From: a virus
Taxonomy: Duplodnaviria > Caudoviricetes
Virus record (IMG/VR): IMGVR_UViG_3300012231_000008
Location: 4,334-68,333 of that record
DNA length: 64,000 bases
Direction: 5' to 3' (one strand)
Positions 4,221 to 34,805 of this stretch are shown here, in pieces. The notes under the pieces were generated by a model that had not been told where the DNA came from, did not search any database, and saw only the letters and a program-made list of their open reading frames with translations. The position numbers and the translations under genes are program-made. Numbering within the stretch: position 1 is the stretch's first letter; each line of letters begins with the position of its first letter.

Positions 4221-4865
4221 ATGAGAAGCGAAGTCAACGACGGCACCGCCGTAGAATCCCGGCGCTCCATTGTGTCCGAGGTCCCTCTCGACGGGCGAGG
4301 GAAGCAGGACGGGGAGCCGCGGGAGCGTGCGCTTACCCTGGTCGAGAAGCTCTATCAGGCTGGCATCCTTTCTTACGACGAGTGGGTAGCCGGCGGCCAG
4401 CTCAGGACCATGTTCTTTTTGGTCGAGGCGCCATCCGAGGGCGTCTCGAGCTACGGCCAGTCTACTGGGCGCGCGGACCCCACCCGCAAGGGCGACCGCA
4501 AGGCGAAGCGCCTCACCGGCATCGAGGTGGCAATAAACGGCGACATTCACCGGGGCCAATCCAGGAACAACCGCGCCGACGTGTGGAAGTACCGGGACGC
4601 CATGTTCGCGATGTGCGGGGTTGCCAACGAGGACGGCGACAAGGTGCTCGACGCCCAGGCCGCCAAGATCATGCTCCGGAGCGTCGTCGACAGCGAATAC
4701 ATGCCCACCCAGACCGAAATCGGCAGGGCTCGGGCCACCTACATCAAGGACGACGGCAATAAGCCGAGCAAACAGGTGACGGCGATCGGGGCCTTCTTCG
4801 TGAAGGAGCACCTCCGGAGGCTGGCTATGCACATGGGGATGGTGAAGGGGGAGGCTGTGAAGTGA
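4221..4865 (+). CDS. Putative late-gene regulator (position typical of Q-like/late activators)
   Basis: 214 aa just upstream of late promoter; LYQAGILSYDEWVAGGQLR; function inferred from position only. Confidence 0.4.
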   Translation: MRSEVNDGTAVESRRSIVSEVPLDGRGKQDGEPRERALTLVEKLYQAGILSYDEWVAGGQLRTMFFLVEAPSEGVSSYGQSTGRADPTRKGDRKAKRLTGIEVAINGDIHRGQSRNNRADVWKYRDAMFAMCGVANEDGDKVLDAQAAKIMLRSVVDSEYMPTQTEIGRARATYIKDDGNKPSKQVTAIGAFFVKEHLRRLAMHMGMVKGEAVK

Positions 4866-5521
4866 CACGCGCACGAAAGCCGCTGACCCATGATTATTTG
4901 GTTTCAGACGTGTTGTACGACGCGGTAGCAGGTGAATTTTACCGCCGCGCGACTGGCAAGATGTTGGGAACGCCAGACAAGTATGGCTACACCGTAGTGT
5001 GGTGCGGCGACAAGGCACACTTTGCTCATCGGCTAGCGTGGTTCTATGTCTACGGCGCATGGCCAGAGGGGCACGTGCATCATAAAAACGGTATCAAGAC
5101 GGATAATTCCATAGTTAATTTGGAGGACCTCGACAGCGCAGAGCATCTATTGCACCACCCATCGACCGTTGAGCGCCGGAAGCGGAAGTGGAAGCCTAAA
5201 TTCACACTCCTCAAGACGCCTAGCGTATTGATGCGGATACTCGCTGTGATGGGATTTGAGCTTGGGCGTTGGTCGGGCACATCCAAGAGGCCGTACCAAA
5301 TAGTATCGACCAGCACCAAGGAGCCAGTCGCTCGGCGCATGACTTTGGATGAGGTGGATGCTTGGGTGCAGGCGGAGCAAGAGCGACGGTGCGCATCAGA
5401 TGTGTCACTACCATCAAGCATGGTTCGGCTTGCTGTCAAAGGCGGGCGCTCACTGAGAGAGCGGAAGGGGATCATTTATTCGCGCGTAGAATCTGCGGGC
5501 AACTGGGCATCCCGTAAGTAG
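4862..5521 (+). CDS. HNH endonuclease (homing-type)
   Basis: AHRLAWFYVYG...HVHHKNGIKTDNSIVNL; lower GC than flanks. Confidence 0.9.
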   Translation: MTRARKPLTHDYLVSDVLYDAVAGEFYRRATGKMLGTPDKYGYTVVWCGDKAHFAHRLAWFYVYGAWPEGHVHHKNGIKTDNSIVNLEDLDSAEHLLHHPSTVERRKRKWKPKFTLLKTPSVLMRILAVMGFELGRWSGTSKRPYQIVSTSTKEPVARRMTLDEVDAWVQAEQERRCASDVSLPSSMVRLAVKGGRSLRERKGIIYSRVESAGNWASRK

Positions 5522-5529
5522 GCGCCCTA

Positions 5530-5585
5530 GATCACGGAAATGTGATCGAAACCCAGTTGACATTGCCTGGTGCACGTGGTAAGGG
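5530..5585 (+). promoter_or_regulatory. Sigma70-type late promoter with upstream palindromic site
   Basis: TTGACA 5557-5562, 17 bp, TG-n-TAAGGG 5580-5585; GATCAC-N6-GTGATC at 5530-5547. Confidence 0.55.
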
Positions 5586-5620
5586 CCTTAGACATTATCC
5601 TAGGATACCTATCTGAGATC

Positions 5621-5651
5621 AGGGCTCGCCGCGGCGGGCCTTCTCCATTTT
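5621..5651 (+). terminator. Candidate intrinsic terminator/attenuator just after late promoter
   Basis: GGCTCGCC/GGCGGGCC stem followed by TTCTCCATTTT. Confidence 0.45.
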
Positions 5652-5857
5652 CGGCCTCCCCCGCCACCCATCACGATCCCATTTGGCCATCTCCGGTTGG
5701 CCAACCGTAGCACCGAGGTATCCCCTCGGCGCATGCCCACCTTGGGCGTTTTCCTCCCTCAGACTTGGGCTCCAGGCCCGAAACTTGGAGCCCTCTTTTG
5801 TCCCTTTGCCAGTGCCCAGAGTTTTCCGTCTCGCCAAGCGCCAACGACCGCACACCC

Positions 5858-6103
5858 ATGATCATGAGCACGCGGGTTTCACGGCCAAAGCAGACGGAAA
5901 TCCTCTCGAGAGCCCAGATGAGCAAGCCCACCGCCCTGACCGACTCCGACCTCGACGAGCAGGATCTCCGGCTCACCAAGGGCTGGGTGATCAGGTACGA
6001 CGTCATGCGGGCGCTCGTTGCCATGGCACGGGAGCGGAACGCCTACGTTCGGGCGTCTGAGGATGAGAGGATCAAGCGGGCGATCCAGGGAGCCATGGCG
6101 TGA
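5858..6103 (+). CDS. Hypothetical protein
   Basis: First ORF after late promoter; start 5858 or 5864; GTGA coupling downstream. Confidence 0.55.
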   Translation: MIMSTRVSRPKQTEILSRAQMSKPTALTDSDLDEQDLRLTKGWVIRYDVMRALVAMARERNAYVRASEDERIKRAIQGAMA

Positions 6104-6435
6104 CCCGCGTCGTCATCGCCACCTTCGCAATGATGGTCGCCTTGATGACGTTGGCGCACCGCGCAAGGGCTCACTCCTGGTACGATCCAGAGTGCTGTTC
6201 TGGTATGGACTGCGCCGTGGTCGAGAAGGTCGAGGTGGTGCCCACCTCTGCGATCGCCAGCATGCTAGTCCCGCCAGCCCAGGCCTCACCCCCGTCCATC
6301 ATGTTCGTGACGACCAAGCACGGGACGGCCCAGGTTCCCCACAACATGCAGTTCCGGGAATCCAAGGACAGCAACATGCACGCCTGCATCATCAAAGGCA
6401 GGCTGATCTGTCTCTACATGCCACCGGGGATGTAG
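6100..6435 (+). CDS. Small secreted Cys-containing protein
   Basis: Signal peptide then AHSWYDPECCSGMDC...HAC...LICLY. Confidence 0.7.
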   Translation: MTRVVIATFAMMVALMTLAHRARAHSWYDPECCSGMDCAVVEKVEVVPTSAIASMLVPPAQASPPSIMFVTTKHGTAQVPHNMQFRESKDSNMHACIIKGRLICLYMPPGM

Positions 6436-6438
6436 CCC

Positions 6439-6573
6439 ATGGCCAAAGCCATCACCGTCAAGCAACTCCGCGCCGAGTGCAAAGCCAGAAGGCTCAAGGG
6501 CTATTCGAAGATGCGGCGGAAGGAGCTGCTCGAGCTGTTGGCGCGTCTGGCGCCCGACTTCCACCCTAACTGA
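6439..6573 (+). CDS. 44-aa Rho-N/SAP-like helix-extension-helix nucleic-acid-binding miniprotein (not in ORF track)
   Basis: TVKQLRAECKARRLKGYSKMRRKELLELL matches the Rho_N/SAP pattern. Confidence 0.7.
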   Translation: MAKAITVKQLRAECKARRLKGYSKMRRKELLELLARLAPDFHPN

Positions 6574-6687
6574 CGGCCGGACTGACGAAGTACACGCACG
6601 TCCGGCCGTTGATCAGCAAGGGGGGCTCCACTGGGGGACAGTGGGTTCGCTGATGTTCTCTCTCTACCCCACAACTGCGGCACAACA

Positions 6688-6954
6688 ATGACAATCGACC
6701 GCCGCGCCCAGAAGCGCATCCAAAACCGCCTCGCCAAGCACGGCATCACCTGGCTCCGCTGGGAACAGAACGACCCGCAGCTCATCACCATGAGAGCGAT
6801 CGTCGAGACCAGGTGCTCGCAGCGCTTCGCCAAGGCAGTCGTCTACCCACTCAACTGGCTCAAGAACGCAGGACCGCGGGTGATCGCCGACAGCATCCTC
6901 TGCGAGTTCGCGCGCCACAATGCAAAGACAATGCAATCGCAATGCCAGTCCTAA
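6688..6954 (+). CDS. Hypothetical protein
   Basis: 88-aa ORF overlapping terS start. Confidence 0.5.
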   Translation: MTIDRRAQKRIQNRLAKHGITWLRWEQNDPQLITMRAIVETRCSQRFAKAVVYPLNWLKNAGPRVIADSILCEFARHNAKTMQSQCQS

Positions 6955-7463
6955 CGAACGCCAAGCATGAGCGCTTCGCGCAGGAAATTGTTAAGTGCTC
7001 CAGCAGCCGCGATGCCTACAAAGCCGCAGGCTACAACAGTAAAAGCGATGCTGTAGCCGATGCAGCCGCCTCCCGACTGTTAAGCGATGTTAAGATTCAG
7101 GGGCGCATCGCAGAGCTTCAGGGCAGGGCCGCAGAGAAGGTCGCCCTGAACCGATCCTGGGTGCTCGAGCGGCTGATGCGCAACGCCCGTATCACCATGG
7201 GCGAGGAGAAGGTCAAGATCACCGTCAAGCCCAAGGACTCGACGGAGACCATTGATCTGGACATCACAATGCGGGATGCCGGCGCAGCCAACCGAGCACT
7301 CGAGCTCCTCGGCAAGACCGAAGAGGCTGCGGTGTTCATCGACCGCGTCGAGCATACCGGCAAGGACGGCGCTCCCCTGATGCCCGAGCCCTCCAACCGC
7401 GACATCGCCCGAGCGATCGCGGACATCCTGCGCACAGCCAAGGTCGAAGAAGCTGGAGAGTGA
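6942..7463 (+). CDS. terS: Terminase small subunit
   Basis: LTNAKHERFAQEIVK...AYKAAGY...AASRLLSDVKIQGRIAELQ...ANRALELLGK...DRVEHTGKDGAPL. Confidence 0.9.
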   Translation: MPVLTNAKHERFAQEIVKCSSSRDAYKAAGYNSKSDAVADAAASRLLSDVKIQGRIAELQGRAAEKVALNRSWVLERLMRNARITMGEEKVKITVKPKDSTETIDLDITMRDAGAANRALELLGKTEEAAVFIDRVEHTGKDGAPLMPEPSNRDIARAIADILRTAKVEEAGE

Positions 7464-7871
7464 ATGCCTCTCGATCCCATCAAAGGTGAAACCTTCGACG
7501 GCCTGAATACGGGTCCTCACATCACCATACCGCCGAGGCTGCTGGCGAACCTCTCGAACCTACAGACTGAGTACACCCTGAAGTCCAGGTTCATCGCTAA
7601 GAGCGCGAAGAAGCGCACTCGCGCCGTCTTCGACGATGCGGTCGCCAATGCAATCGAGGCGTTCGCCGAGAATGGCGCCCTTCGCCCCATCCGCTTCGAT
7701 GAGGACGACGTCGTCGTCCAGGTCTATCCCAGCGACTTCAAGGTTGCGGTCATCTTCCAGCGCTCGATCGCCGGGACCGTCCACTACTCCACCAGCTTCT
7801 ACGATCTGCCGCCGGCCGCCCTTGCCTGTCTGCTTGATGCAGCCGGGAAGAGAGCGCCAGCGACGCACTGA
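7464..7871 (+). CDS. Hypothetical protein
   Basis: 135-aa ORF abutting terS. Confidence 0.6.
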   Translation: MPLDPIKGETFDGLNTGPHITIPPRLLANLSNLQTEYTLKSRFIAKSAKKRTRAVFDDAVANAIEAFAENGALRPIRFDEDDVVVQVYPSDFKVAVIFQRSIAGTVHYSTSFYDLPPAALACLLDAAGKRAPATH

Positions 7872-7884
7872 GGTTTCTGCAACG

Positions 7885-8664
7885 ATGGCAATGAATGAAC
7901 AGGAGCTGCTGGCGGCGCTCGAGCGCACGCGCTTTTGGGCGTCTGACACGCAGGACCCTCGCCTGGCCGCCATGTATGAGCGCACCGCACAGAAGATTGA
8001 GGAAGAGCTTGCCAGGGTAGAGGCGGCAGCCAAGCAGCAGGTGGCGCTCAGTCAGAGCCGGGAGCTGCAGGTTGCGCAGCCGAGTCCCGCTGCGCCTGCG
8101 GTGGCCGCCGCACCCGCCACGTTCTCGCTCGAGTTCAAGGGGTTGCCGGAGGCCATCGCCGCGGTGCAGGGACTGCAGGCCACGCTGGCCGGTATCGCCG
8201 CAGCGATCAGCAGTCGTGATCTGGCCGATCTTACCGCCGCAGTCAACGCCAAGGATAAGGATGCCGGGGCTGGAAAGATCGAGGATCTCCTCGCAGTGGT
8301 GAGGGAGTTTGCGACGTCACTGGTCCCGGCGACGGTTGCGGGTGAGGTCAAGGAGTTCGCGTCCGCGTTTGTCCCGGACACCGTCGCGGAGGCTGTGCAG
8401 CCACTGCAGGTCGCCGTTGACCAATTCACGCAGGATGTCGCTGCCAACTGTGAGCAGGCTAACGCCAACGCCGAGCAGGCTTCTGCCCGCATTGCAAAGG
8501 TTGCGGCCGACGTCGAGCGTATCGCCGCCGAACAGCGCGCCCCGCGTAGCATCGTGACCGATAAGTCTGGCCGCGCCGTCGGTGTCAAGACCGGCAAGGG
8601 CGTGCGCAAGATCATCAGGGATGAGTCTGGTCGGCCCGTGGGTCTCGAGGGCGAGGCTAGCTAA
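7885..8664 (+). CDS. Ala-rich coiled-coil protein, likely virion-associated
   Basis: ATG 7885; C-terminal IVTDKSGRAVGV / IIRDESGRPVGL doublet; TAATG coupling. Confidence 0.65.
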   Translation: MAMNEQELLAALERTRFWASDTQDPRLAAMYERTAQKIEEELARVEAAAKQQVALSQSRELQVAQPSPAAPAVAAAPATFSLEFKGLPEAIAAVQGLQATLAGIAAAISSRDLADLTAAVNAKDKDAGAGKIEDLLAVVREFATSLVPATVAGEVKEFASAFVPDTVAEAVQPLQVAVDQFTQDVAANCEQANANAEQASARIAKVAADVERIAAEQRAPRSIVTDKSGRAVGVKTGKGVRKIIRDESGRPVGLEGEAS

Positions 8665-9869
8665 TGGCTCTGTCTATTACACACTCCTACGTGTCGGCTG
8701 TCCCAGATGCCGGTGACGCATCGCTCGTCCAGCCCTCCGACTGGAACGACACGCACGACATTTCTGGGCTTGCCGCGGGTATCGAGGATTTCCTCGCAAC
8801 GCCTTCCAGCGCGAACCTCAAGACCGCCGTCACGGATGAGACGGGGTCTGGTGCCCTAGTATTTGCCAACACGCCGACGCTTGTGACACCTGTACTGGGT
8901 GCTGCGACCGGCACGTCAGTCGTTCTCTCTGGCAAGCTCGAAGCCGCATCGATCGAGCTCGGCCATGCCTCGGCTAATACCCTGACGGCGTCGGGCGGAA
9001 CGCTCTCGATTGAGGGCGTGGCAGTCCTGACCGCGAACACGGGCCAGCCTCTTGATAGCGATCTGACAAGCTGGGCAGGCGTAACGCGGGCCAGCGGGTT
9101 CGATACATTCGCAGCGACGCCATCTAGCGCCAACCTAATATCGCTCGTCTCGGACGAGACTGGCACGGGTGCGCTAGTGTTTGCGAACACGCCCACATTA
9201 GTCACGCCGGTCCTCGGCGCGGCAACCGGCACGTCCGTAGTGCTGAGTGGAAAGCTTGAGGCAGCGACGATCGAGCTTGGCCACGCCTCCGCGAACACGC
9301 TTTCCGCATCTAGCGGCGTGCTGTCGATAGAGGGCACCGTCCTAATCAAGGGTGGCACGCACACGATCTGGATACCTGCGGGCGCCATGATGGCCGCAGC
9401 GACCAGCGGCGCTGCCACGGCTTCGCTGGACAGCGGCAGCGAGGACATCAACTATAAGGTCTTCGATTTCGACGCGAGCGCAGACGAGTACGTGCATTTC
9501 TCCGTCGCCATGCCCAAGGGCTGGGACGAAGGGACGGTTACCTTCCAGGTGTGGTGGTCATCGACGGCGACCGACACTGACGGCGTGGCGTGGGCGCTGC
9601 AGGGCATAGCCCTCTCAGATAACGAGGCCGTCAACACCGCCTTCGGCACGCCTGTTGTTGTCACCGATGATGCGCAGAGCGCAGCCGGTGAGGTTTACGT
9701 TACAGCAGCAAGCGGCGCCGTGACGATCGGCGGATCTCCAGCAGAGGGTGATATTGTCTTCTTCCGGCTACTCCGAGACGTTTCGGACGCCAACGACGAT
9801 ATGTCCGAAGACGCCCGCCTGATCGGCATCAAGCTCTTCTACACCGTAGCCGCTGCGAACGACGCCTAG
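8664..9869 (+). CDS. Putative tail fibre/spike protein with internal 76-aa duplication
   Basis: N-terminal VQPSDWNDTH motif, S/T/G/A-rich shaft, beta-rich C-terminal domain. Confidence 0.65.
   Translation: MALSITHSYVSAVPDAGDASLVQPSDWNDTHDISGLAAGIEDFLATPSSANLKTAVTDETGSGALVFANTPTLVTPVLGAATGTSVVLSGKLEAASIELGHASANTLTASGGTLSIEGVAVLTANTGQPLDSDLTSWAGVTRASGFDTFAATPSSANLISLVSDETGTGALVFANTPTLVTPVLGAATGTSVVLSGKLEAATIELGHASANTLSASSGVLSIEGTVLIKGGTHTIWIPAGAMMAAATSGAATASLDSGSEDINYKVFDFDASADEYVHFSVAMPKGWDEGTVTFQVWWSSTATDTDGVAWALQGIALSDNEAVNTAFGTPVVVTDDAQSAAGEVYVTAASGAVTIGGSPAEGDIVFFRLLRDVSDANDDMSEDARLIGIKLFYTVAAANDA
8790..9335 (+). repeat. Two 228-nt in-frame copies (8790-9017 and 9108-9335)
   Basis: 66/76 aa identical; central 33 aa identical but 24 of 33 codons differ. 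Confidence 0.95.
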
Positions 9870-12684: not shown

Positions 12685-13071
12685 ATGACCATGCATCGCT
12701 ACATCTTCAATGTGTCCACAGATACGGGCACATCCGCGCTACAATCCGGCGATACCGGCAAGTCGGTTTTCGGCCAAGTTGTGCAATTGCGCTGGAACCC
12801 GACATCGGTGGATACAGGTGGCGATTTGTACGTCGCGCTACTCCCCAAGGACGGCGACACCGGGGACGGCTTCACTATCTACTCCAAGAACGACTGCCTC
12901 GGCAGCAACTTCACGCGGTTCCTTGGATATCCCTCGTCACACATCGACGGCTTCGACACCGGCCGCGGTGGCGCAGCCCACCCATACGCTGCCGGTGAGC
13001 GCCTCCGTATCAAGATTCTCCCCGGTCAGAGTGAGTGCCGCGGCAGGCTCTACGTCTACGTGAAGGAGTGA
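12685..13071 (+). CDS. Putative virion beta-sandwich protein with 5 DTG motifs
   Basis: STDTG, GDTG, VDTG, GDTG, FDTG in 128 aa. Confidence 0.7.
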   Translation: MTMHRYIFNVSTDTGTSALQSGDTGKSVFGQVVQLRWNPTSVDTGGDLYVALLPKDGDTGDGFTIYSKNDCLGSNFTRFLGYPSSHIDGFDTGRGGAAHPYAAGERLRIKILPGQSECRGRLYVYVKE

Positions 13072-13230: not shown

Positions 13231-13791
13231 GTGGCCGACACGAAAGTCAGCGCCGAGACGCTCGTCAGTGCGCTTGCCGCCAACCACAGATTCTACGTGG
13301 TCTGCGATACCGGCGCCGCGCCAGACTCTAACGCCGCGCGAGCATCCCAGGTCAAGACTTACGTGGGCATTGGCACCGCGACCAATGATGATGCCGCGGC
13401 GGGTGCGATTGGAGAGACCCAGGTTGCAACGGGGTCAGCCGTTGCTCTGACCACGACGACGCCAGCCAACGTGTGCTCAATCTCGCTGACTGCTGGAGAT
13501 TGGGACGTTTCGGCCGTGGCCGGTTTCACCGGAGCTGGTGCCACCGTAACCAGTAATATCACGCTATCGCACAGCACCACGAGCGCAACCCAAGACGGGA
13601 CTGTCGGCAAGCAGAACACATTTCGCTTCAACGGCGGCTCCGGCTTTACCGACGTCAACCATGGCGTCTCTCTTTCGCCGTACAGGTATTCTCTCGCCGC
13701 CACGACGACCGTCTATCTGGTGGCAACCGCCGTGTTCTCGACATCCACCTACGCTGTCAGCGGTCGGCTTTATGCCCGAAGGATGCGCTAG
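13231..13791 (+). CDS. Putative fibre/decoration protein (1 DTG)
   Basis: T/A/G/S-rich beta protein; GEIGE-like GAIGETQ motif; C1q/TNF-like strand pattern at end. Confidence 0.55.
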   Translation: MADTKVSAETLVSALAANHRFYVVCDTGAAPDSNAARASQVKTYVGIGTATNDDAAAGAIGETQVATGSAVALTTTTPANVCSISLTAGDWDVSAVAGFTGAGATVTSNITLSHSTTSATQDGTVGKQNTFRFNGGSGFTDVNHGVSLSPYRYSLAATTTVYLVATAVFSTSTYAVSGRLYARRMR

Positions 13792-13794
13792 CCC

Positions 13795-14967
13795 ATGATC
13801 CCCCACTACGGCAAGCGTGAGGCAGGGCTGCTTACCGCAGCAAGTCCGGGGGATACCCTCTATTTCCCGTTCGCCTCCTACAACGACTCCGGCGACTCCG
13901 AGGTGCTGAGCGGTCTGGCCGTCACCGATATCGAAGTTCTGAAAAACGGCCTCCCGACCGTGCGCGCCACGGACTCCGGCTATTCGCTGATCTCCGACAC
14001 CGGCATGGTGGGTGATCGTGGCGGCCTTTACCGCTGCTCGATCCAGCTCTTCAACACCGCCGACGACGCCTCCTTCTATGCATCGGGGTCCTGGTATCAG
14101 GCGTTCGTGGACGCCGTCACCATCGATGGCAGGACAGTTCGGTTTTGGCTCGGATCGTGGGAGATCGGGCGCCAACGCGTCGATGTGCGCGCGCTGATCG
14201 GCGACACCGGCGCCGCCAACTGGCTGCAGCAGACGTATGCGGCGGGCTTCGCTGACACTGGCGTGAACCAGCGCCTCGGGCAAATACAGTCCGACGTGGA
14301 CACGGGGCTGAGAACCCACGTCAACGACCTCGACACGGGCCTCCACGACACCATCGCCGATTTGGATACTGGCTTGCGCGACCATGTCGACAACACCGAT
14401 ACTGGCCTGCGTCGGTTCCTAGACAATATGGACACCGGCATCAAGGACCGCTTCAACGATCTCGCCGAGGATACGGGTGGAGTAAATATCAACTCGATCC
14501 AGGGTGATACTGGCGCGGCCGGCTGGCTCAAGGCCATCTTTGCCAACGGTTTCAACGATACCGGCATCAACGAGCGCCTCGCCCGCATCCAGTCGGATGT
14601 CGATACTGGGCTGCGCGTTCATATCGACGACAGCGATACTGGCATCAAGGATGTCATTGCGGATCTCGACACCGGTCTGCGAGACTACATCGACAATGCG
14701 GATACCGGGCTGCGCGCCATCCTCCAGACGACCGGCGTCAACGTCACAAAGATCGTGGGCGACACTGGTGCCGCCAACTGGCTCAAGACCGTCTACACCT
14801 CCGGCTTCACCGACACCGGCCTCGAAGAGCGCCTGACCACTATTGAGACCCAGACCAACAAGCTCACCTTCGACACCGGCAACGAGCTGCACGCCGACAT
14901 CCGCAAGGTCAATAACGTCACCGTTCAGGGCGCGGGCTCCAATGGCAACGAGTGGAGGCCTGAGTAA
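13795..14967 (+). CDS. Repeat protein with 18 DTG motifs, probable fibre/whisker
   Basis: Globular N-terminus then 11-residue DTG-periodic coiled coil. Confidence 0.75.
   Translation: MIPHYGKREAGLLTAASPGDTLYFPFASYNDSGDSEVLSGLAVTDIEVLKNGLPTVRATDSGYSLISDTGMVGDRGGLYRCSIQLFNTADDASFYASGSWYQAFVDAVTIDGRTVRFWLGSWEIGRQRVDVRALIGDTGAANWLQQTYAAGFADTGVNQRLGQIQSDVDTGLRTHVNDLDTGLHDTIADLDTGLRDHVDNTDTGLRRFLDNMDTGIKDRFNDLAEDTGGVNINSIQGDTGAAGWLKAIFANGFNDTGINERLARIQSDVDTGLRVHIDDSDTGIKDVIADLDTGLRDYIDNADTGLRAILQTTGVNVTKIVGDTGAANWLKTVYTSGFTDTGLEERLTTIETQTNKLTFDTGNELHADIRKVNNVTVQGAGSNGNEWRPE
14200..14885 (+). repeat. 33-nt (11-aa) periodic repeat nested in a roughly 100-aa duplicated unit
   Basis: DTGLRTHVNDL-DTGLHDTIADL-DTGLRDHVDNT-DTGLRRFLDNM-DTG; GDTGAAxWL...GFxDTG unit occurs three times. 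Confidence 0.9.
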
Positions 14968-15200
14968 TGGCCACCACCATCAGCAAGCGAGTGCCGTCGG
15001 GGGCGTCCGCTAGCAACACGCCCCGTGTCTCGATGGGCAGCCACAACGCCTCCTACGATTGCTGGGGCGGCTCATGGGGCAGTTCGTGGCTCCTTGCTTG
15101 GCACAACTTCCTTTCCGCCTCTGAGCTATCTGGCAACATCACCCAGCGTGTGACGAGCACGCAGGTGACGGCCAACAATACCAAACGGGTGACGCTCTGA
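14967..15200 (+). CDS. Small hypothetical protein
   Basis: TAATG coupling; WGGSWGSSW motif. Confidence 0.6.
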   Translation: MATTISKRVPSGASASNTPRVSMGSHNASYDCWGGSWGSSWLLAWHNFLSASELSGNITQRVTSTQVTANNTKRVTL

Positions 15201-16238: not shown

Positions 16239-17081
16239 ATGACAATGAGCGTCTTAAAAGGCCTGCACCGCAGGGCACTCGGTCTCAGTAAGGACGGCGA
16301 GACGATGTCGCGAGCTGGCTTCGTTGCCGGCGGCGAAGACAAGCCGGTTATCGTATTCCCTGGCCCCGACACGGTCGCCATATTCGACGACTTTCTCGGC
16401 GATCTGGTTGGAGATGAGTGGATCGCTGGATCCTCGGATACCGGCCAAGCTACCGGCACTGGCGTTCTGGCTACTTCGGCGGTATCGGCGACCAACGGCA
16501 TCTACCGCATGACGTCGTCGGCATCATCGACCCAGACGCCAGCCGGCGGCGCACAGAGCATCAACACACCACCAAACTGGAAGGCGAACCAAGGTCAGGC
16601 GCTCAATAAGCCCTTGCGCTTCGGAGCCCGCGTCAAGATCGCCGACCTCGCCAAGAACAACGTCTTTGTCGGTCTGACAGACACCGGCGGCGCTGAGATA
16701 GCGGTGTACGACACAGGTGGCGGCATCCTTACCCCGGCTGCTGACTATGTCGGTTTCCTCAAGGGTGGCGGCGCTGCGGCCGGAACGACCGCCCTGACTT
16801 GGCGTCTGGTGACTGGCAAGGCCGGCGTCGACCAGGTCGCTACTACCGGCATCACCCCAACCACTAACGTCTACGACGTGCTTGAGGTCGAGGTGAGCCC
16901 AGACGGCAACGTGGCAACAGGCTTCATCAACGGGAAGTACGCGGCGCAGATCATCAGCGCGGCTACCACTCCCACTGTCGCCCTGGCTGGCGGCGTGTGG
17001 CGGGCCAACACGGAAGCCGCCGCCGATGCAGTCGATGTTGACTGGATGGCCATTTCCGCCCCTCGAGACACAGGATTGTAA
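16239..17081 (+). CDS. Putative capsid decoration/jelly-roll virion protein with 4 DTG motifs
   Basis: FDDFLGD start of beta-sandwich; SDTG, TDTG, YDTG and C-terminal RDTGL. Confidence 0.6.
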   Translation: MTMSVLKGLHRRALGLSKDGETMSRAGFVAGGEDKPVIVFPGPDTVAIFDDFLGDLVGDEWIAGSSDTGQATGTGVLATSAVSATNGIYRMTSSASSTQTPAGGAQSINTPPNWKANQGQALNKPLRFGARVKIADLAKNNVFVGLTDTGGAEIAVYDTGGGILTPAADYVGFLKGGGAAAGTTALTWRLVTGKAGVDQVATTGITPTTNVYDVLEVEVSPDGNVATGFINGKYAAQIISAATTPTVALAGGVWRANTEAAADAVDVDWMAISAPRDTGL

Positions 17082-19400: not shown

Positions 19401-20204
19401 GTGCTCGCAGTGGTGAGCTTTTTCTGGGTTGACAAGTCCCGCGCCAATCAGCGCACGGCGCGGCCCTGGCGCGATCCGAAAACTGGTGAGACGCACATGC
19501 TCACCATCAACCCGGATGAGGTGCGCATCTGGGACCGCATGGTGGCGCGCAATCTCTCTATCCCACACCGCAGAGTCTGCGTGACCCATCGCCCGGACTG
19601 GATCGACTTCATGGAGACGGTGCCGCTGGACATGGCAAAGCATGTGCCCGGCACGTGCCTCGTGAAACTGCAGGCGCACAAGCCCGGCGGTGTCGCCAAG
19701 GAAGGCGATAACGTCGTGTTGATGGATGTCGACTGCGTGGTGACGGGAAACCTTGATCCGCTGTTCACGTCGGCAACCCCCGGCATCACGAGCTGGTGGT
19801 GGAAAAACCCGAACTATGAGCGGGGCGGCAAGCGCGGGTTCATTCAGGGGTCGCTGCAATATTTTACGGTCGGCGCCACCGAGTTCCTATGGCGCGACTT
19901 CGACCCACGATCGACGATGTCATGGCTCAATCGCCGCTTCGGTGGCGCCGAGCAATGCTGGATATCTGAGCGCATGAACGCGGAATATCCCGCGCCCGGC
20001 TGGCAATGGAACGTCGCGCATTGGACTGAGGCCGATGGCGTCTACGGAGCCGGCCGCCTCTTCAACGGCAAGATGGGTGCAGGCGTGCAGACCGAGTTGC
20101 CCGCCAATGCACGGATCGTCTTCTTTCCTGGCAACCGCAGTGCGATGCAGCCTGATACGCAAGCCCAACATCCATGGATCAAGGAGTTTCTTAGCCAGCC
20201 ATGA
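19401..20204 (+). CDS. GT-A fold glycosyltransferase (paralogue 1)
   Basis: RMVARNLSIPHRRVCVTH, HVPGTC, LMDVDCVVTGNLD (DxD), GGAEQCWISE. Confidence 0.8.
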   Translation: MLAVVSFFWVDKSRANQRTARPWRDPKTGETHMLTINPDEVRIWDRMVARNLSIPHRRVCVTHRPDWIDFMETVPLDMAKHVPGTCLVKLQAHKPGGVAKEGDNVVLMDVDCVVTGNLDPLFTSATPGITSWWWKNPNYERGGKRGFIQGSLQYFTVGATEFLWRDFDPRSTMSWLNRRFGGAEQCWISERMNAEYPAPGWQWNVAHWTEADGVYGAGRLFNGKMGAGVQTELPANARIVFFPGNRSAMQPDTQAQHPWIKEFLSQP

Positions 20205-20887: not shown

Positions 20888-21282
20888 GCGATCTGCGTGA
20901 CTTCCTGAACTGGTTCGACGGCTTCGCCGAGAACATCGAGAAGACGCCGACGGCCAAGCAGTGGGCAAAGATCAAGGAGCGCGTGGGCGCGCTGCAGTTG
21001 CAGAAGGTGGAGCCAGAGACGCAGGTGACGCGTCATAATGGCCCCAGCACCCTGGTTACGGTGCGGGCTCCCAAGCCACGCAAGCCTCACCCTACCGCCT
21101 TCAAGTTCATCATCGACAATCAAGGTGTGGTCCGCCGCGGCAATGGCGAGCCCGTCCTGCCCAGCGACGTGACCGACATCATCCACGACTACCGCGACGG
21201 CGAGGCCGATCTGCGATCGATCATCTGGGCCGATGGCTCGACTGGCCTCAACGGCCAGGATCTCACGATCGTTGCTGCATGA
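20884..21282 (+). CDS. Hypothetical protein
   Basis: ATGA coupling both ends; FLNWFDGFAE...PTAKQWAKIKE. Confidence 0.65.
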   Translation: MSDLRDFLNWFDGFAENIEKTPTAKQWAKIKERVGALQLQKVEPETQVTRHNGPSTLVTVRAPKPRKPHPTAFKFIIDNQGVVRRGNGEPVLPSDVTDIIHDYRDGEADLRSIIWADGSTGLNGQDLTIVAA

Positions 21283-22115
21283 TAACCATTGCGACCTACT
21301 GGTGGAGCCCGGACGCGGGCAGCAAGTTCGACGTCCCCTACCGCACCGACGACGTCCGCCGCCTGCAGCGCATGGTGGCGAGGCACTGCACCGTACCGCA
21401 CCAGTTCGCTGTTATCACAGACCAGCCCGCTCTGTTTGCGGGCGACCGCAATATCTGCGCCATCCCCATCGACAAGACCACCCACGTTCCCGGCACCTGT
21501 TTCACCCGCTTGATGACATTCCACCCGCGAGGCCGGGAGTTGATCGGCGAGCGCATCCTGCAGCTCGATCTCGACACCGTCATCGTCGGCAACATCGATC
21601 ACCTCGTCACGCGCGAGGAGCCGGTGGTGCTCTGGCGCAACCCGACGCGGTTTCCCTGGGCCGACATGGATGCAGAGGGCCTGAAGGCCCACGTCGAGCA
21701 GAGCTTCCCCGGCATGGCCCATCTTCTCGGCAGCGTCGACTGGCGCCAGAAGAGCATCGCCTACGTGGGCGGAGAGGGTAACGTCTTCGTCGTCAACCAG
21801 CTTCGCACCTACTACAACACGTCGGTGGTATTCCACCATTGTGGCACCATGCCGGAAATCTGGGAGCGCTTCGATCCCAAGCGCCCCCCGGCCAAAGATG
21901 ACCAGTGGCATCTGTCCAACATCTTCGGCATGAACTGCCCCTACTTCGATGGCGAGCGGGATGGCGTCTACCGGCGGGCACGAGCCGACACGCCTAACTC
22001 CGGCATTGACGGCGACAAGAAGAACGCCTGCGTGCTCACGTTTCCGGGGAGCCACGGCAAGATGGACGACGCGTTCATCGCCCGGAACCCCTGGATCAAG
22101 GAGCACCTTGAGTGA
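21279..22115 (+). CDS. GT-A fold glycosyltransferase (paralogue 2)
   Basis: RMVARHCTVPHQFAVITD, HVPGTC, LDLDTVIVGNID (DxD), YNTSV, DDQWHLS. Confidence 0.85.
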   Translation: MITIATYWWSPDAGSKFDVPYRTDDVRRLQRMVARHCTVPHQFAVITDQPALFAGDRNICAIPIDKTTHVPGTCFTRLMTFHPRGRELIGERILQLDLDTVIVGNIDHLVTREEPVVLWRNPTRFPWADMDAEGLKAHVEQSFPGMAHLLGSVDWRQKSIAYVGGEGNVFVVNQLRTYYNTSVVFHHCGTMPEIWERFDPKRPPAKDDQWHLSNIFGMNCPYFDGERDGVYRRARADTPNSGIDGDKKNACVLTFPGSHGKMDDAFIARNPWIKEHLE

Positions 22116-30086: not shown

Positions 30087-30365
30087 ATGGCTACCTACTC
30101 CAAAGATAAAATGAAGCTCATGAGTCAGGGCCTCACTGGCTTTAAGATCTGGAGCTACCACGACACCGGAACGGTGCTCGATGTGGCCGGATTTTTTGCC
30201 AATGCCGGCGACATGGGTGTGGACAGCGGTGACCTGATCATGAGTAGCGGTGGTGGCGTGACGAAGATCGTCAGGGCCGCTGCGTTTGCTCCCGGTTATG
30301 TGCAGGATACGGGCGCGACGCAGGGCACGACCGGCCCCGCTACCCTCATCGGCGATACCGGCTGA
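30087..30365 (+). CDS. Small capsid-associated protein with 3 DTG motifs, ending in DTG
   Basis: Follows MCP before terminator; YFANA-like GFFANAGDMGVDSGDLI. Confidence 0.75.
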   Translation: MATYSKDKMKLMSQGLTGFKIWSYHDTGTVLDVAGFFANAGDMGVDSGDLIMSSGGGVTKIVRAAAFAPGYVQDTGATQGTTGPATLIGDTG

Positions 30366-30832: not shown

Positions 30833-31471
30833 GTGGCGACCAAACTCGGCATTTTCAATGCAACGCTCGACGAACTCGGGCATCGCCCCGTTACCGATAC
30901 GGGCGAGCCAGTGGAGGCGGCGCGCGTGCTTTCGCGCCGCTACGACCGGGTGGTCGCCGATTGCCTCTCCGAGGCGAGTTGGAATTTCGCCATGGAGACC
31001 ATCGAGGCGACGTCGGACACGGGCGTCACACCAGAGTTCGGCTACGGCGAGGTGTTCGCTAAGCCCTCAGATTGGGTGCGAACCATCAGCGTATCGATGG
31101 ACGAGTATTTCTCCTACCCGCTCCTGCAATACTACGACGACGCCAACTTCTGGTCGGCGGACGTGAGCCCGCTCTACATCCGCTACGTCTCGAACGACAC
31201 CGGGTTAGGTATGGACATGACCCGGTGGACGCCGGCGTTCACCCGCTATGTCGAGCTGGAACTGGCGCACCGCGCCTGGCGCATCAACAACGACAAGTCG
31301 CTGCGCGAGGAGATCGGCCAGATGCGTGATCGGGCGCGCAAGGCCGCGAAGAACCAGGACGCCATGAATGAAGCGGCAACCAAGTTCCCGCCGCCATCCT
31401 CATGGACGCGGTCGCGTTGGGGTGACGGCGGCGGGAACGATCGCGGCGGCCGCGGCAGCTTGACGGGATGA
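30833..31471 (+). CDS. Tail tubular protein A (adaptor, T7 gp11-like); 3 DTG
   Basis: IFNATLDELG...YDRVVADCL...WNFA...FAKPSDWVR...IRYVS...FTRYVELELA. Confidence 0.85.
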   Translation: MATKLGIFNATLDELGHRPVTDTGEPVEAARVLSRRYDRVVADCLSEASWNFAMETIEATSDTGVTPEFGYGEVFAKPSDWVRTISVSMDEYFSYPLLQYYDDANFWSADVSPLYIRYVSNDTGLGMDMTRWTPAFTRYVELELAHRAWRINNDKSLREEIGQMRDRARKAAKNQDAMNEAATKFPPPSSWTRSRWGDGGGNDRGGRGSLTG

Positions 31472-31475
31472 CCTT

Positions 31476-34400
31476 ATGACGAAAGCGAACGTCCCGTTCC
31501 TCAGCTTCAACCGCGGGCTGATTTCTCCGAAAGCCCTGGCGCGCGTCGATATCGATAAGTTGCGGCTTGCGGCTGAGGTGTTTACGAACTGGATTCCCAA
31601 AACAACGGGGGCCATGATCATCCGACCCGGCACGAAGTGGCTGGGAAGCTCCCTCAACGACACAGGCGCTGAGTTTTTGGAGTTCGTGGCCTCGACCGAC
31701 GATGTGGCATTGCCGGAGATCACCCACAACAAGATGCGGGTGTGGCTCGGGACCGATCCGCACAATATCTCTCTGCTCGGTCGGCCAGCGGTCGACACCG
31801 TCGTTGCGATAGCCGATACGGGATGGTCGAATACATCGACCGGCGGCGCGTTTGCGACGTCCGCCTCCGATCTAATGCCGACCATGAATGGGTACACGAC
31901 GTCTACCGCGGAAATAACCGCATCCTCCGATGATGCTGTGCAGGAGCGGCAAGCGTGGCGTGCTGCGGACGACGATAACGCCACTTATTGGCAGGACACA
32001 GGCAACAGCGAGGCGTCGACGCTGCCCACATGGTGGAACGTCGACTTCAGCTCCAACGGCGATACCGGCAACCGCAAAGCGGTCCGTTCCTATAGCATCC
32101 GTTCAACCGAGAACGCTGCTTTTGTGTTGTCCGCTCCCAAGAAATGGTCGCTGCTTTCCAGCAACTGGGACACCGGAACCTACGCGACCGATACGGGAAA
32201 GTGGACGCTCACGGATACGCAAGGCTCTGAGACTGGCTGGGCGGTCAACGAGAGGCGCACCTATCGGCTTCCCGATGCTGATACCGGCACGATCGACATC
32301 AAGCGGCACTGGCGGCTCTATTTTACTCAGATTGTCGGGGGTGCCGACGCCTCGCTCCGCATCTCTGAAATCGAAATGTTTGATGCCGCTACCGCGCAGC
32401 AGGTGAAGCTACAGGGCGGCAAGCGCGTCTTCAATGCCACCGCCACGGGTTCCCTGGCGCGGCTCGAGAGGACCGTGTTGGTGAGTGATACGGGGAGCGA
32501 GCACAGCCTTGCCATCTATGTCGAGCGTGGGCCGATCACTCTGCGAGTCGGATCAAGCCAGCGTGGTGACGACTACATCAATGAGACCGCGTTGGGAACA
32601 GGCTACCACAACTTAGCCTTCACGCCGCTAGGCAACTTCTACATCACGCTGCAGCACGATGGTCTGGTAGATCGCATCGTCTCCTCTATCGCCATCGGCG
32701 ACAGCGGCACCGTCGAGCTCACCGCGCCGTGGGAGGCGGCTGATCTTGAGAACATCCGCTACGACCAGTCCGCCGATGTCGTCTATGTGGACTGCGCGGG
32801 TGTCCGGCCGCAGAAGATCGAGCGACGCGGCACTGGGCGGTCGTGGAGTGTCGTCGACTTCGCGCCTAACTTCGGGCCGTTCCTGCCCACTGCTTCATCG
32901 ACAGCAAAATTGCAATTCGGGGCTTACATCGGCAACGCAACGCTCAACTCGGACATCCCGCTGTTTACGGCTGATCACGTCGGAGCATTGGTGCGGGCTT
33001 TTCACGGTGGTCAGGACGGCGTGTGGCGACTTGGCGATACCCAGGTCAGCACCGACGCCATTGAAGTAACCGGCTACAGCGATACTGGAGGCGGCGCAGA
33101 CAGTGAGCGTCAGCTTGTGTTCACTGTCACCGGAACCTGGAGCGGATCCATTGTCATTGAGCGCTCTTTTAACGGGCCGGAGGAAGGGTATCACAGCGTC
33201 GATACAAACTTCGTTGCCGGAGGGCTTGGTGCTGAGGATACCGGCAGCTTCACGCGCACCATCAATGACCGGGATGACAACGTGGGGGTGTGGTATCGCG
33301 CACGCGTGAGCTCGCACACGAGCGGCGTGGCCGTCGTCAGCATAACCTACAAGGGTGGCGGCATTACCGGCGTTGCGCGCATCATCGGCTACAACTCCGC
33401 AACGGACGTAGATGTTGAGATTCTGTCGCGCTTCTCCGATACGGGGCCTACCGACAACTGGCAGGAGGGACACTGGTCGGCCCAGCAAGGATTCCCGACC
33501 TCAGTTGCATTGCACGGCGGTCGCCTCGCCCACGCCGAAGGCGGTCAGCTCTTCATGTCTGTGTCCGACGATTACGAGAACTACGACGATGGCACGGTGG
33601 GTGATGCTGGTCCCGTTGTGCGCGCGCTGGGCTCGGGTCCGGTCGATGCTATCCGCTTCCTAATCTCAAAGTTGCGGCTCCTGATCGGCACGGCTGGTGC
33701 GGAAATCGCGCTAACAACCTCCTCGCTCGATGAGCCGGTGACGCCGACCAACTGCAACGCTCGGTTGTTCTCCAGCAAGGGCAGCGCCAACGTGCGAGCG
33801 TTACACCTCGATACCAGGGCCATCCATGTGGGTCGGGCGGGTAACCGTATCTACATGATCGGCCCATCGGATGCAGCCTTTGGAGACTATGCCTCGTTTG
33901 ATCTGACTCGGTTGGTGCCGAACCTGCTTGATGCCGGCGTTGTCTCGATCGCCGTGCAGCGCCATCCCGACACGCGCGTGCACTGCGTTCTTGCCGACGG
34001 CAAGGTCGCCATCCTCACCTACGAGCCAGAGGAGGAGGTGGTGTGCTGGTCGATGTGGGAGGGCGATACGGGCACAGGGGCGGCTGTGGAGAAAGTTGTC
34101 GTGCTGCCTGGAAGCGGCGAGGACGCCGTCTTCTACCACGTCCGACGCACCATCAACGGCACGACTAAGCGGCACCTCGAGAAGTGGTCGAAGGAGTCGG
34201 AATGCGTCGGCGACACCGGCCTGACCTGGATCATGGATTGCTCGAGGAGCTACACGGATACAGGGCGCTCCGCTGCGCTCACGGATATCGCCACGCATCT
34301 GGTGGGCGAGTCGGTGGTGGTCTGGAGTGACGACACGGGCTCGATCCCAGGTGTCGACAGATCATCCGATGTCAACGGCGTGCAGACGCGCTACACGGTC

Positions 34401-34805
34401 GATACAGGTGGCGACGTCACGCTCTCGACAGCCGTGCATCATGCCGTGGCTGGGCTGCCGTACCGCGCGCTCTGGAAGAGTGCCAAGCTTGCCTATGCGT
34501 CCGAGGCCGGCACCGGGCTTGCGCAGTTAAAGCGCGTGGACAAGATCGGGTTCGTGTTGTGGCAGACCCACAATAACGGGCTGTTCTTCGGCAACGATAC
34601 CGGCAACCTCGACCCGCTCCCGCGCATCATCGACGAGGGCGCCGAAGTCGATGCGGACAAGATATTTGCGGCCGAAGAGCTGATCGCGATGCCGTTTCCA
34701 GGTTTGTGGAAGGCGGACAGCCGCATCGTGCTGCAGGGCAAATCGCCAAGACCGGCAACGGTTCTCGCTGCTATTCCCGGCGTCGACGTCAACGAGAAAG
34801 TCTAA
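31476..34805 (+). CDS. Tail tubular protein B (nozzle, T7 gp12-like), enlarged; 17 DTG
   Basis: SFNRGLISP...GAMIIRPGT; YDQSADVVY; GFPTSVALHGGRL; AVAGLPY. Confidence 0.85.
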   Translation: MTKANVPFLSFNRGLISPKALARVDIDKLRLAAEVFTNWIPKTTGAMIIRPGTKWLGSSLNDTGAEFLEFVASTDDVALPEITHNKMRVWLGTDPHNISLLGRPAVDTVVAIADTGWSNTSTGGAFATSASDLMPTMNGYTTSTAEITASSDDAVQERQAWRAADDDNATYWQDTGNSEASTLPTWWNVDFSSNGDTGNRKAVRSYSIRSTENAAFVLSAPKKWSLLSSNWDTGTYATDTGKWTLTDTQGSETGWAVNERRTYRLPDADTGTIDIKRHWRLYFTQIVGGADASLRISEIEMFDAATAQQVKLQGGKRVFNATATGSLARLERTVLVSDTGSEHSLAIYVERGPITLRVGSSQRGDDYINETALGTGYHNLAFTPLGNFYITLQHDGLVDRIVSSIAIGDSGTVELTAPWEAADLENIRYDQSADVVYVDCAGVRPQKIERRGTGRSWSVVDFAPNFGPFLPTASSTAKLQFGAYIGNATLNSDIPLFTADHVGALVRAFHGGQDGVWRLGDTQVSTDAIEVTGYSDTGGGADSERQLVFTVTGTWSGSIVIERSFNGPEEGYHSVDTNFVAGGLGAEDTGSFTRTINDRDDNVGVWYRARVSSHTSGVAVVSITYKGGGITGVARIIGYNSATDVDVEILSRFSDTGPTDNWQEGHWSAQQGFPTSVALHGGRLAHAEGGQLFMSVSDDYENYDDGTVGDAGPVVRALGSGPVDAIRFLISKLRLLIGTAGAEIALTTSSLDEPVTPTNCNARLFSSKGSANVRALHLDTRAIHVGRAGNRIYMIGPSDAAFGDYASFDLTRLVPNLLDAGVVSIAVQRHPDTRVHCVLADGKVAILTYEPEEEVVCWSMWEGDTGTGAAVEKVVVLPGSGEDAVFYHVRRTINGTTKRHLEKWSKESECVGDTGLTWIMDCSRSYTDTGRSAALTDIATHLVGESVVVWSDDTGSIPGVDRSSDVNGVQTRYTVDTGGDVTLSTAVHHAVAGLPYRALWKSAKLAYASEAGTGLAQLKRVDKIGFVLWQTHNNGLFFGNDTGNLDPLPRIIDEGAEVDADKIFAAEELIAMPFPGLWKADSRIVLQGKSPRPATVLAAIPGVDVNEKV

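Follow-up and report, generated by a model that had tools for sequence, protein, structure and literature searches.

We analyzed a 64,000-nucleotide stretch from the genome of an uncultured phage (Duplodnaviria; Caudoviricetes; IMG/VR virus record IMGVR_UViG_3300012231_000008, positions 4,334 to 68,333), referred to here as the window. One of its genes, at positions 13795 to 14967, encodes a 390 amino acid (aa) protein that carries the tripeptide Asp-Thr-Gly (DTG) 18 times. Sequence comparisons and structural modeling indicate that the gene product is a modular phage fiber-type protein, with a predicted immunoglobulin (Ig)-like anchor, a segmented helical shaft and a C-terminal beta module of ~35 residues. 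The protein may be a glycosylated phage fiber, and the reading we favor, with a probability of about 0.5, is a modular fiber with a segmented shaft in which DTG marks acceptor sites that are O-glycosylated by the phage’s own GT-A enzymes. An earlier note, made from the sequence of the window alone, had described this protein as a hendecad (11-residue) coiled coil displaying DTG and interpreted it as a fiber that presents a linear stripe of modified threonines, as a glycan brush or ruler; the observation is confirmed by our analysis and the interpretation is partly supported.

In the favored reading, DTG would be a clade-specific short linear motif set on exposed positions of seven predicted virion proteins. 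The motif, in the form D-[T>S]-G, would serve as the acceptor signal, with the Thr O-glycosylated in the cytoplasm by phage GT-A glycosyltransferases and the attached sugar then tailored by neighboring methyltransferases and oxidoreductases. The fiber would be a poly-acceptor scaffold displaying local rows of modified threonines. Both the action of the GT-A enzymes on DTG proteins and the identity of Thr as the modified residue are points that we infer. A bolder form of the proposal, in which DTG is a new O-glycosylation signal, genetically encoded and recognized by a phage GT-A enzyme in the cytoplasm, is put forward tentatively, at somewhat less than even odds.

DTG count, spacing and repeat structure of the fiber

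Successive DTG along the open reading frame (ORF) at 13795-14967 are spaced at 69, 17, 15, 11, 11, 11, 11, 13, 12, 17, 15, 11, 11, 11, 20, 17 and 20 residues. Chance or composition as the source of these tripeptides is ruled out, as 100,000 shuffles of the fiber protein gave a mean of 0.57 DTG and a maximum of 6, against the 18 observed. A cause at the DNA level is also excluded: the codons used for DTG differ along the gene (GAC/GAT, ACC/ACT/ACG and GGC/GGG/GGT, with all synonymous positions variable), and Tandem Repeats Finder reported no DNA repeat in the gene. The constraint or signal therefore sits in the protein. Structural predictions were made with AlphaFold2 (AF2), run on the fiber as a monomer with 106 relatives; confidence is given as the predicted local distance difference test (pLDDT). 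The features of the gene are:

13795..14967, + strand, DTG fiber gene (390 aa, 18 DTG, frame open)
13795..14169 (aa 1-125), + strand, N-terminal Ig-like beta-sandwich domain, the presumed virion anchor (AF2 pLDDT ~95)
14200..14502 (aa 136-236), + strand, super-repeat 1, with units of 17, 15, 4x11, 13 and 12 residues and a DTG opening each
14299..14469, + strand, hendecad run 1, with DTG at aa 169, 180, 191, 202 and 213 (AF2 helix 181-226; period 3.69)
14503..14757 (aa 237-321), + strand, super-repeat 2, as aligned to super-repeat 1
14602..14733, + strand, hendecad run 2, with DTG at aa 270, 281, 292 and 303 (AF2 helix 256-312; period 3.67)
14758..14859 (aa 322-355), + strand, partial third super-repeat, in which the unit start is repeated (alignment reaching aa 322-368)
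14860..14964 (aa 356-390), + strand, conserved C-terminal beta module, LTF-DTG-NELHADIRKVN...G.G..G.EWRP (AF2 pLDDT 80-89)

The two super-repeats (aa 136-236 and 237-321) align over 81 columns with ~62% amino acid identity and 66% DNA identity, and this low identity between the copies indicates that the duplication is old. The earlier claim of a ~100-aa unit present twice, with a partial third copy, agrees with the alignment of aa 136-236, 237-321 and 322-368, and the DTG at exact 11-aa spacing were found as reported, with all four of the 11-mers quoted in the earlier note present in the ORF.

A segmented helical shaft

One DTG lies within a loop of the N-terminal Ig-like domain (aa 68-70). 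The region from aa 131 to 355 is predicted by AF2 to be helical (pLDDT 55-80), with breaks near residues 179, 227-231, 253-255, 313-324 and 336-340; helices 155-178, 181-226 and 256-312 of the monomer model pass through the DTG of the 11-residue units. The hydrophobicity of the two long helices has its Fourier peak at 3.66-3.69 residues, which corresponds to 11/3.

A grammar of units was derived from 2,294 DTG-to-DTG segments of 120 homologues among those listed. The 11-residue units (n = 671) have the consensus D-T-G-L-R-D-H-I-A-D-L, the 15-residue units (n = 378) DTG-I-N-D-R-L-A-R-I-Q-S-D-V and the 17-residue units (n = 175) DTG-A-A-N-W-L-K-A-T-F-A-N-G-F-A; other DTG-initiated units are of 12, 13, 14 and 18-22 residues. 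Hydrophobic residues occupy positions 4, 8 and 11 of the 11-residue units and, in addition, position 15 of the 15-residue units, for a 4-3-4(-4) spacing; the geometry of such hendecad and pentadecad coiled coils has been described (PMC4786415). Runs comprise 1 to 7 consecutive 11-residue spacings (167 homologues), and run length differs between homologues by 11-residue steps, which indicates that length changes by whole repeats. A shaft in the form of a hendecad helix is well supported by the periodicity and by the models. Of the hendecad coiled coil proposed in the earlier note, the 11/3 period, the 4-3-4 pattern of a/d/h positions and the predicted helices hold, but a continuous rod does not, with units of 12 and 17 residues interrupting it.

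Eleven-residue repeats also occur in amphipathic helices that bind membranes or lipids, like those of apolipoproteins and late embryogenesis abundant (LEA) proteins, and the fiber scores weakly against two Pfam families, Apolipoprotein (17.3 bits) and Baculo_PEP_C (23 bits). A lipid-binding function of the repeats is nevertheless very improbable, as these scores are far below the Pfam cut-offs (90 bits for Apolipoprotein and 38 bits for Baculo_PEP_C), hydrophobic positions make up only 3 of 11, and the anchor-shaft-knob architecture is that of a fiber, common to phage structural modules. Membership in Apolipoprotein A1/A4/E or Baculo_PEP_C was rejected, the sub-cut-off scores reflecting periodicity only.

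Searches with the fiber of Pfam, PHROGs, NCBIfam and PDB sequences gave no above-threshold match to any described family; a few relatives of the fiber match tail-fiber PHROGs. Fold searches with the fiber model returned only generic Ig-like sandwiches and long helices (Z 7.1 or lower), and a feature search with the N-terminal domain returned unnamed viral clusters only. We infer the oligomeric state of the fiber and its location in the virion.

Orientation of the DTG threonine

DTG occupies the three positions between core residues spaced i and i+4, and as a result Asp and Gly flank the hydrophobic seam while Thr points straight out. On an 11/3 helical wheel the angle from the center of the seam is 164 degrees for Thr, 65 degrees for Asp and 98 degrees for Gly. 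Thr would thus be the most exposed residue of the hendecad, and yet it is invariant. The placement of Thr outside the coiled-coil core, on which the earlier interpretation depended, is borne out here by the analysis of register only. Within a run the Thr pitch is 11 x 1.5 = 16.5 angstroms, and phase is lost across the non-helical units. A linear stripe of threonines is therefore expected inside runs (4-5 DTG in this protein, 2-8 across the family) and not along the whole shaft; for the idea of a ruler we found no supporting observation.

Several of these features would also suit a non-covalent structural or assembly motif (a helix cap, an inter-helix salt bridge, or a docking or ion-binding epitope), in which case the enzyme cassette described below would be unrelated to DTG. 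Asp at position 1 and Arg, His or Lys at position 5 (94% basic) could form a salt bridge from i to i+4 or between chains, Asp and Gly flank the seam, several DTG are at helix starts in the AF2 model, and many DTG sites are positionally conserved. We consider such a role unlikely. The invariant Thr is at the most exposed hendecad position, where the fold does not constrain it, and the relatives of the fiber and the other DTG proteins, discussed in the next sections, provide further arguments.

DTG as an overlay on an older fiber scaffold

The fiber has more than 200 close metagenomic relatives. A search at E up to 0.001 gave 1,675 representative matches, none with a functional name, and the N-terminal domain had 829 representative matches at E<1e-10, many of them with other shafts. 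The relatives fall into two classes: a DTG-class, with members of 225-1477 aa that carry 4-76 DTG, and proteins with the same N-terminal domain but essentially no DTG. Shafts of the latter are built of GSVTGAV runs, AITAxxIA 10/11-mers or SDTTxIx heptads, often followed by the same C-terminal module, which in the non-DTG fibers reads LTF-TVA-GQVDANIQ...EWGP. Sister fibers with other short periodic shaft repeats include P0188, P0195, P0203, P0233 and P0236. With their varied shafts, the sister fibers make up a rich, undescribed modular fiber family.

Comparison of the two classes reveals homologous positions that differ exactly by the tripeptide. In the C-terminal module, KTDSLTF-TVA-GQVDANIQ of the non-DTG fibers corresponds to KTDKLTF-DTG-NELHADIRK in the protein studied here; HVTAGSFG likewise corresponds to HTDTGSFG, and GTGA-SGDEWGP to GTGDTGAGDTWRP, in the DTG-class. 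DTG is thus an overlay on an older fiber scaffold. DTG is probably unnecessary for the fold, because sister fibers have the same modules without it; that this applies to the N-terminal, the shaft and the C-terminal modules alike also counts against the structural motif considered above.

Genes for relatives of the fiber are found next to those for portal, terminase and tail proteins in viral contigs that have no other relationship. Among 50,697 phage records we found no recognizable cultured relative of the fiber or of a non-DTG relative of it, matches due to periodicity only being set aside. Lak-phage matches obtained with tblastn were rejected as such, the matching segment being an 11-residue repeat without DTG. 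The largest number of DTG was observed in a 1477-aa member of the family with 76 DTG, encoded at 4986-9419 of locus L083, where four adjoining ORFs have 5-8 DTG each.

Conservation of the tripeptide

Variation is rare at all three residues of DTG, with DSG as the main variant. Shafts of DTG-class fibers contain 55 DTG per 1000 residues, compared to 1.1 in the non-DTG relatives, which equals the compositional expectation, and almost half of the shaft Asp, Thr and Gly residues belong to DTG. The near-cognates ETG, NTG, DTA and DTS together occur 8 times in the shafts versus 3,286 DTG, each at ≤0.07 per 1000, while DSG occurs 62 times in DTG-class shafts (1.0 per 1000). Sequences flanking DTG are variable, with a hydrophobic residue favored at +1.

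DTG in other predicted virion proteins

The layout of the window is that of a T7-like podovirus, with large terminase, portal, major head protein, tail tubular proteins A and B, and internal proteins. DTG is concentrated in seven predicted virion proteins, which have 51 DTG in 2,397 aa, versus 1 in 11,774 aa of the other proteins examined. Besides the fiber, they include:

12685..13071, + strand, 128-aa beta-rich protein (5 DTG at clade-conserved positions)
16239..17081, + strand, 280-aa protein (4 DTG, one C-terminal)
30087..30365, + strand, 92-aa protein after the major head protein (3 DTG, with DTG at its end)
30833..31471, + strand, tail tubular protein A-like (3 DTG)
31476..34805, + strand, tail tubular protein B-like, the nozzle protein (17 DTG)

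The same pattern is repeated in five related viral loci and in L083, and is absent from 76 loci that have only a non-DTG fiber. DTG occurs in helices, in loops and in beta-rich proteins without a common flanking context, which is not what a motif with a structural or assembly role would lead one to expect.

Among the small beta-rich proteins, DTG are mostly at conserved positions, with some lineage-specific insertions. Homologues of the nozzle protein (n = 120), which is at most 30% identical to the proteins of cultured podoviruses, have 10-22 DTG each, distributed over 76 alignment columns, with ~14 sites nearly fixed. Many of the nozzle sites were gained or lost, with gains from unrelated tripeptides, and this turnover is a further point against a structural role. 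DSG is the commonest substitute at several, though not all, of the conserved nozzle sites; residue 409 is within DSG in 97 of the 120 homologues and within DTG in 23, while the other conserved sites have DSG in 2-18 of 120.

The remaining proteins of the clade (G000, L001-L005 and L083) contain 5 DTG compared to 11.3 expected (P = 0.03, for proteins that are not independent), and the five other orders of D, T and G occur 9-15 times. The shortfall of DTG in non-target proteins may be the consequence of motif avoidance.

An enzyme cassette downstream of the fiber

Candidate enzymes for a modification of DTG are encoded downstream of the fiber gene:

15272, 20201 and 22112 (the last of FkbM type), methyltransferase-type genes
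17746, flavoenzyme
18813, short-chain dehydrogenase/reductase (SDR)
19401..20204, + strand, GT-A-fold glycosyltransferase candidate, 4.4 kb downstream of the fiber (invariant D109-x-D111)
21279..22115, + strand, paralogue of the GT-A candidate (32% identity)
22933, P-loop protein

The 19401 and 21279 genes have no Pfam match. Over 400 homologues of the 19401 product were found, at 58-76% identity, with D109-x-D111 invariant. The confident AF2 model of this product (pLDDT 89) was matched by Foldseek, with E of 1e-7 to 1e-5 and probability 1.00, to LgtC, BoGT6a, glycogenin, blood-group transferases and the catalytic domain of UGGT, and in Atlas the protein is nearest to viral glycosyltransferase clusters. 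Based on its model, the 19401 product is a candidate retaining glycosyltransferase of GT8/GT6-like GT-A fold.

Homologues of 17084, 19401 and 20201 are encoded in all five DTG-class loci (L001-L005) and make up a constant part of the cassette, while the flavoenzyme (3/5 loci), the SDR (4/5) and the FkbM methyltransferase (1/5) are variable. L002 has apparently a single GT-A gene. None of the 76 non-DTG loci contains the cassette; one weak match to gene 17084 was found in L014. A constant core with variable tailoring genes would be typical of glycan clusters.

The cassette also bears on the possibility that DTG is the signal for a modification other than a sugar, such as methyl-esterification of Asp or phosphorylation of Thr, carried out by the cassette methyltransferases or the P-loop protein. 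There are three methyltransferase-type genes and a P-loop gene to be accounted for, and the Asp of DTG is as invariant as the Thr. FkbM and class I methyltransferases beside a GT-A, an SDR and a flavoenzyme are, however, the usual composition of a sugar-tailoring cluster. In addition, DSG as the substitute points to the hydroxyl group, and the accessory enzymes vary between members of the clade while the GT-A is constant. A non-sugar modification therefore seems to us a rather poor prospect.

O-glycosylation of DTG by the GT-A enzymes, the reading we favor, has several observations against it. The major head protein is without DTG although it too is on the surface. The link between DTG and the cassette rests on one phage clade and is confounded by shared ancestry; with motif and cassette linked within a single clade, common ancestry alone would give their co-occurrence, and no independent gain or loss of motif and cassette was found among the DTG-class and the 76 non-DTG loci. 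The GT-A enzymes could act on DNA, lipopolysaccharide or another target instead, and interchange of Ser and Thr would be allowed equally by a purely structural, hydrogen-bonding role. As to the shaft, an invariant Gly every 11 residues and a composition rich in Asp, Thr and Asn are odd for a coiled coil, and the shaft helices have only moderate pLDDT in the monomer model.

L019 and L060 were considered as an independent contrast and set aside as unusable, their terminases being 46-55% identical and the loci otherwise distant (the L019 portal is 30% identical). A scan of representative bacterial genomes for the GT-A returned one 4.9-kb contig of a metagenome-assembled genome only, which provides no host clue and no sign of prophages. 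Two GT-A homologues, P0280 and P0340, are found one under an Aquamicrobium sp. assembly (79.8-kb contig) and the other on a 161.6-kb contig; these contigs may be host clues.

Comparison with known systems

The closest architectural analogue of the fiber is a segmented coiled-coil fiber such as T4 fibritin (wac), which is attached to the virion by its N-terminus and has a long coiled coil interrupted by short non-helical stretches and a tiny beta element at the C-terminus. The two share an attachment part, a segmented helical shaft and a small C-terminal beta element, but the period of the fiber is 11/15 instead of 7, an invariant DTG opens every segment, and searches of Pfam, PHROGs and PDB sequences revealed no similarity to T4 fibritin, whether by sequence or by profile. 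The stalks of trimeric autotransporter adhesins are the closest geometric analogue, with mixed 11/3 and 15/4 periods, polar residues close to the core and lengths that vary in whole repeats (PMC4786415). The fiber differs from them as a phage protein with no autotransporter anchor, and with a conserved Gly and an exposed, invariant Thr in each repeat. Membership in the T4 fibritin or trimeric autotransporter family is not supported by the sequence.

Freeman et al. (2023; reference 80 of PMC12582341) reportedly found that mycobacteriophage virions are glycosylated by phage-encoded glycosyltransferases. The sites there are reportedly Ser/Thr-rich C-terminal tails with no defined tripeptide. As in that system, glycosyltransferase genes lie within or next to the structural operon and the (here putative) substrates are outer virion proteins; unlike it, the putative signal is an exact tripeptide distributed over seven proteins, and the hosts are probably Gram-negative. 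Repeats of the AIDA-I and TibA autotransporters are heptosylated by a dedicated cytoplasmic transferase, and the capsid of chlorovirus PBCV-1 is glycosylated at a non-canonical motif by virus-encoded glycosyltransferases together with sugar methyltransferases. A dedicated cytoplasmic transferase decorating many repeats of a long surface protein, as in AIDA-I and TibA, is what we propose here, but folds, enzymes, residues and motifs all differ from those of AIDA-I/TibA and PBCV-1.

Bacterial O-glycosylation is generally without a sequence motif, the Bacteroidota being the only known exception (PMC12871550). Their general O-glycosylation motif, D-(S/T)-(A/L/V/I/M/T), has an obligatory Asp for which Glu is not tolerated, accepts both Ser and Thr, and shows strong enrichment in its class of target proteins; modification is periplasmic and lipid-linked, and in B. 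fragilis glycosylation was abolished when Gly stood at +1 (PMC12871550). DTG resembles this motif in having Asp before the hydroxy residue and differs in that +1 is invariably Gly, no export signal was seen on inspection by eye, and the candidates for the enzyme are soluble proteins of the GT-A type. Because DTG fails the +1 rule, it does not belong to the Bacteroidota system. The G+C content of the window is 62%. Literature searches yielded no report of DTG as a motif in phages.

Implications

If DTG is indeed a new O-glycosylation signal of this kind, it would be only the second O-glycosylation motif of defined sequence in the bacterial world, and a portable one. The fiber family would then be a natural poly-acceptor scaffold for 4 to 76 glycans per chain, with a 16.5-angstrom pitch on exposed rows, and would be ready for use as a tool for programmable glycan display. 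Glyco-engineering would have a cytoplasmic pair of enzyme and motif, and the role of a sugar coat in environmental phages could be studied. The fiber encoded at 13795-14967 is the most practical substrate for a test, being short and soluble-looking, with 18 sites and with Thr on the outer face of a simple helical repeat. Should DTG prove unmodified, an invariant, exposed Thr-Gly in a coiled coil would be an unexplained structural rule that deserves a structure.

Genes adjoining the fiber gene

Two genes flank the fiber gene closely:

14967..15200, + strand, 77-aa ORF, its start overlapping the fiber stop codon by one base
13231..13791, + strand, 186-aa protein with a domain of the tail-fiber C-terminal type (phrog_11393, E 2.6e-13), ending 4 nt upstream of the fiber gene

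The 77-aa ORF also directly follows the fiber gene in L001, L003, L004 and L005 (33-49% identity), and its product is possibly a partner or chaperone of the fiber. The match of the stand-alone 186-aa protein to phrog_11393 covers only the C-terminal 140 positions of that family. The protein is poorly conserved in the clade, and such weak conservation is what a receptor-binding tip would show.

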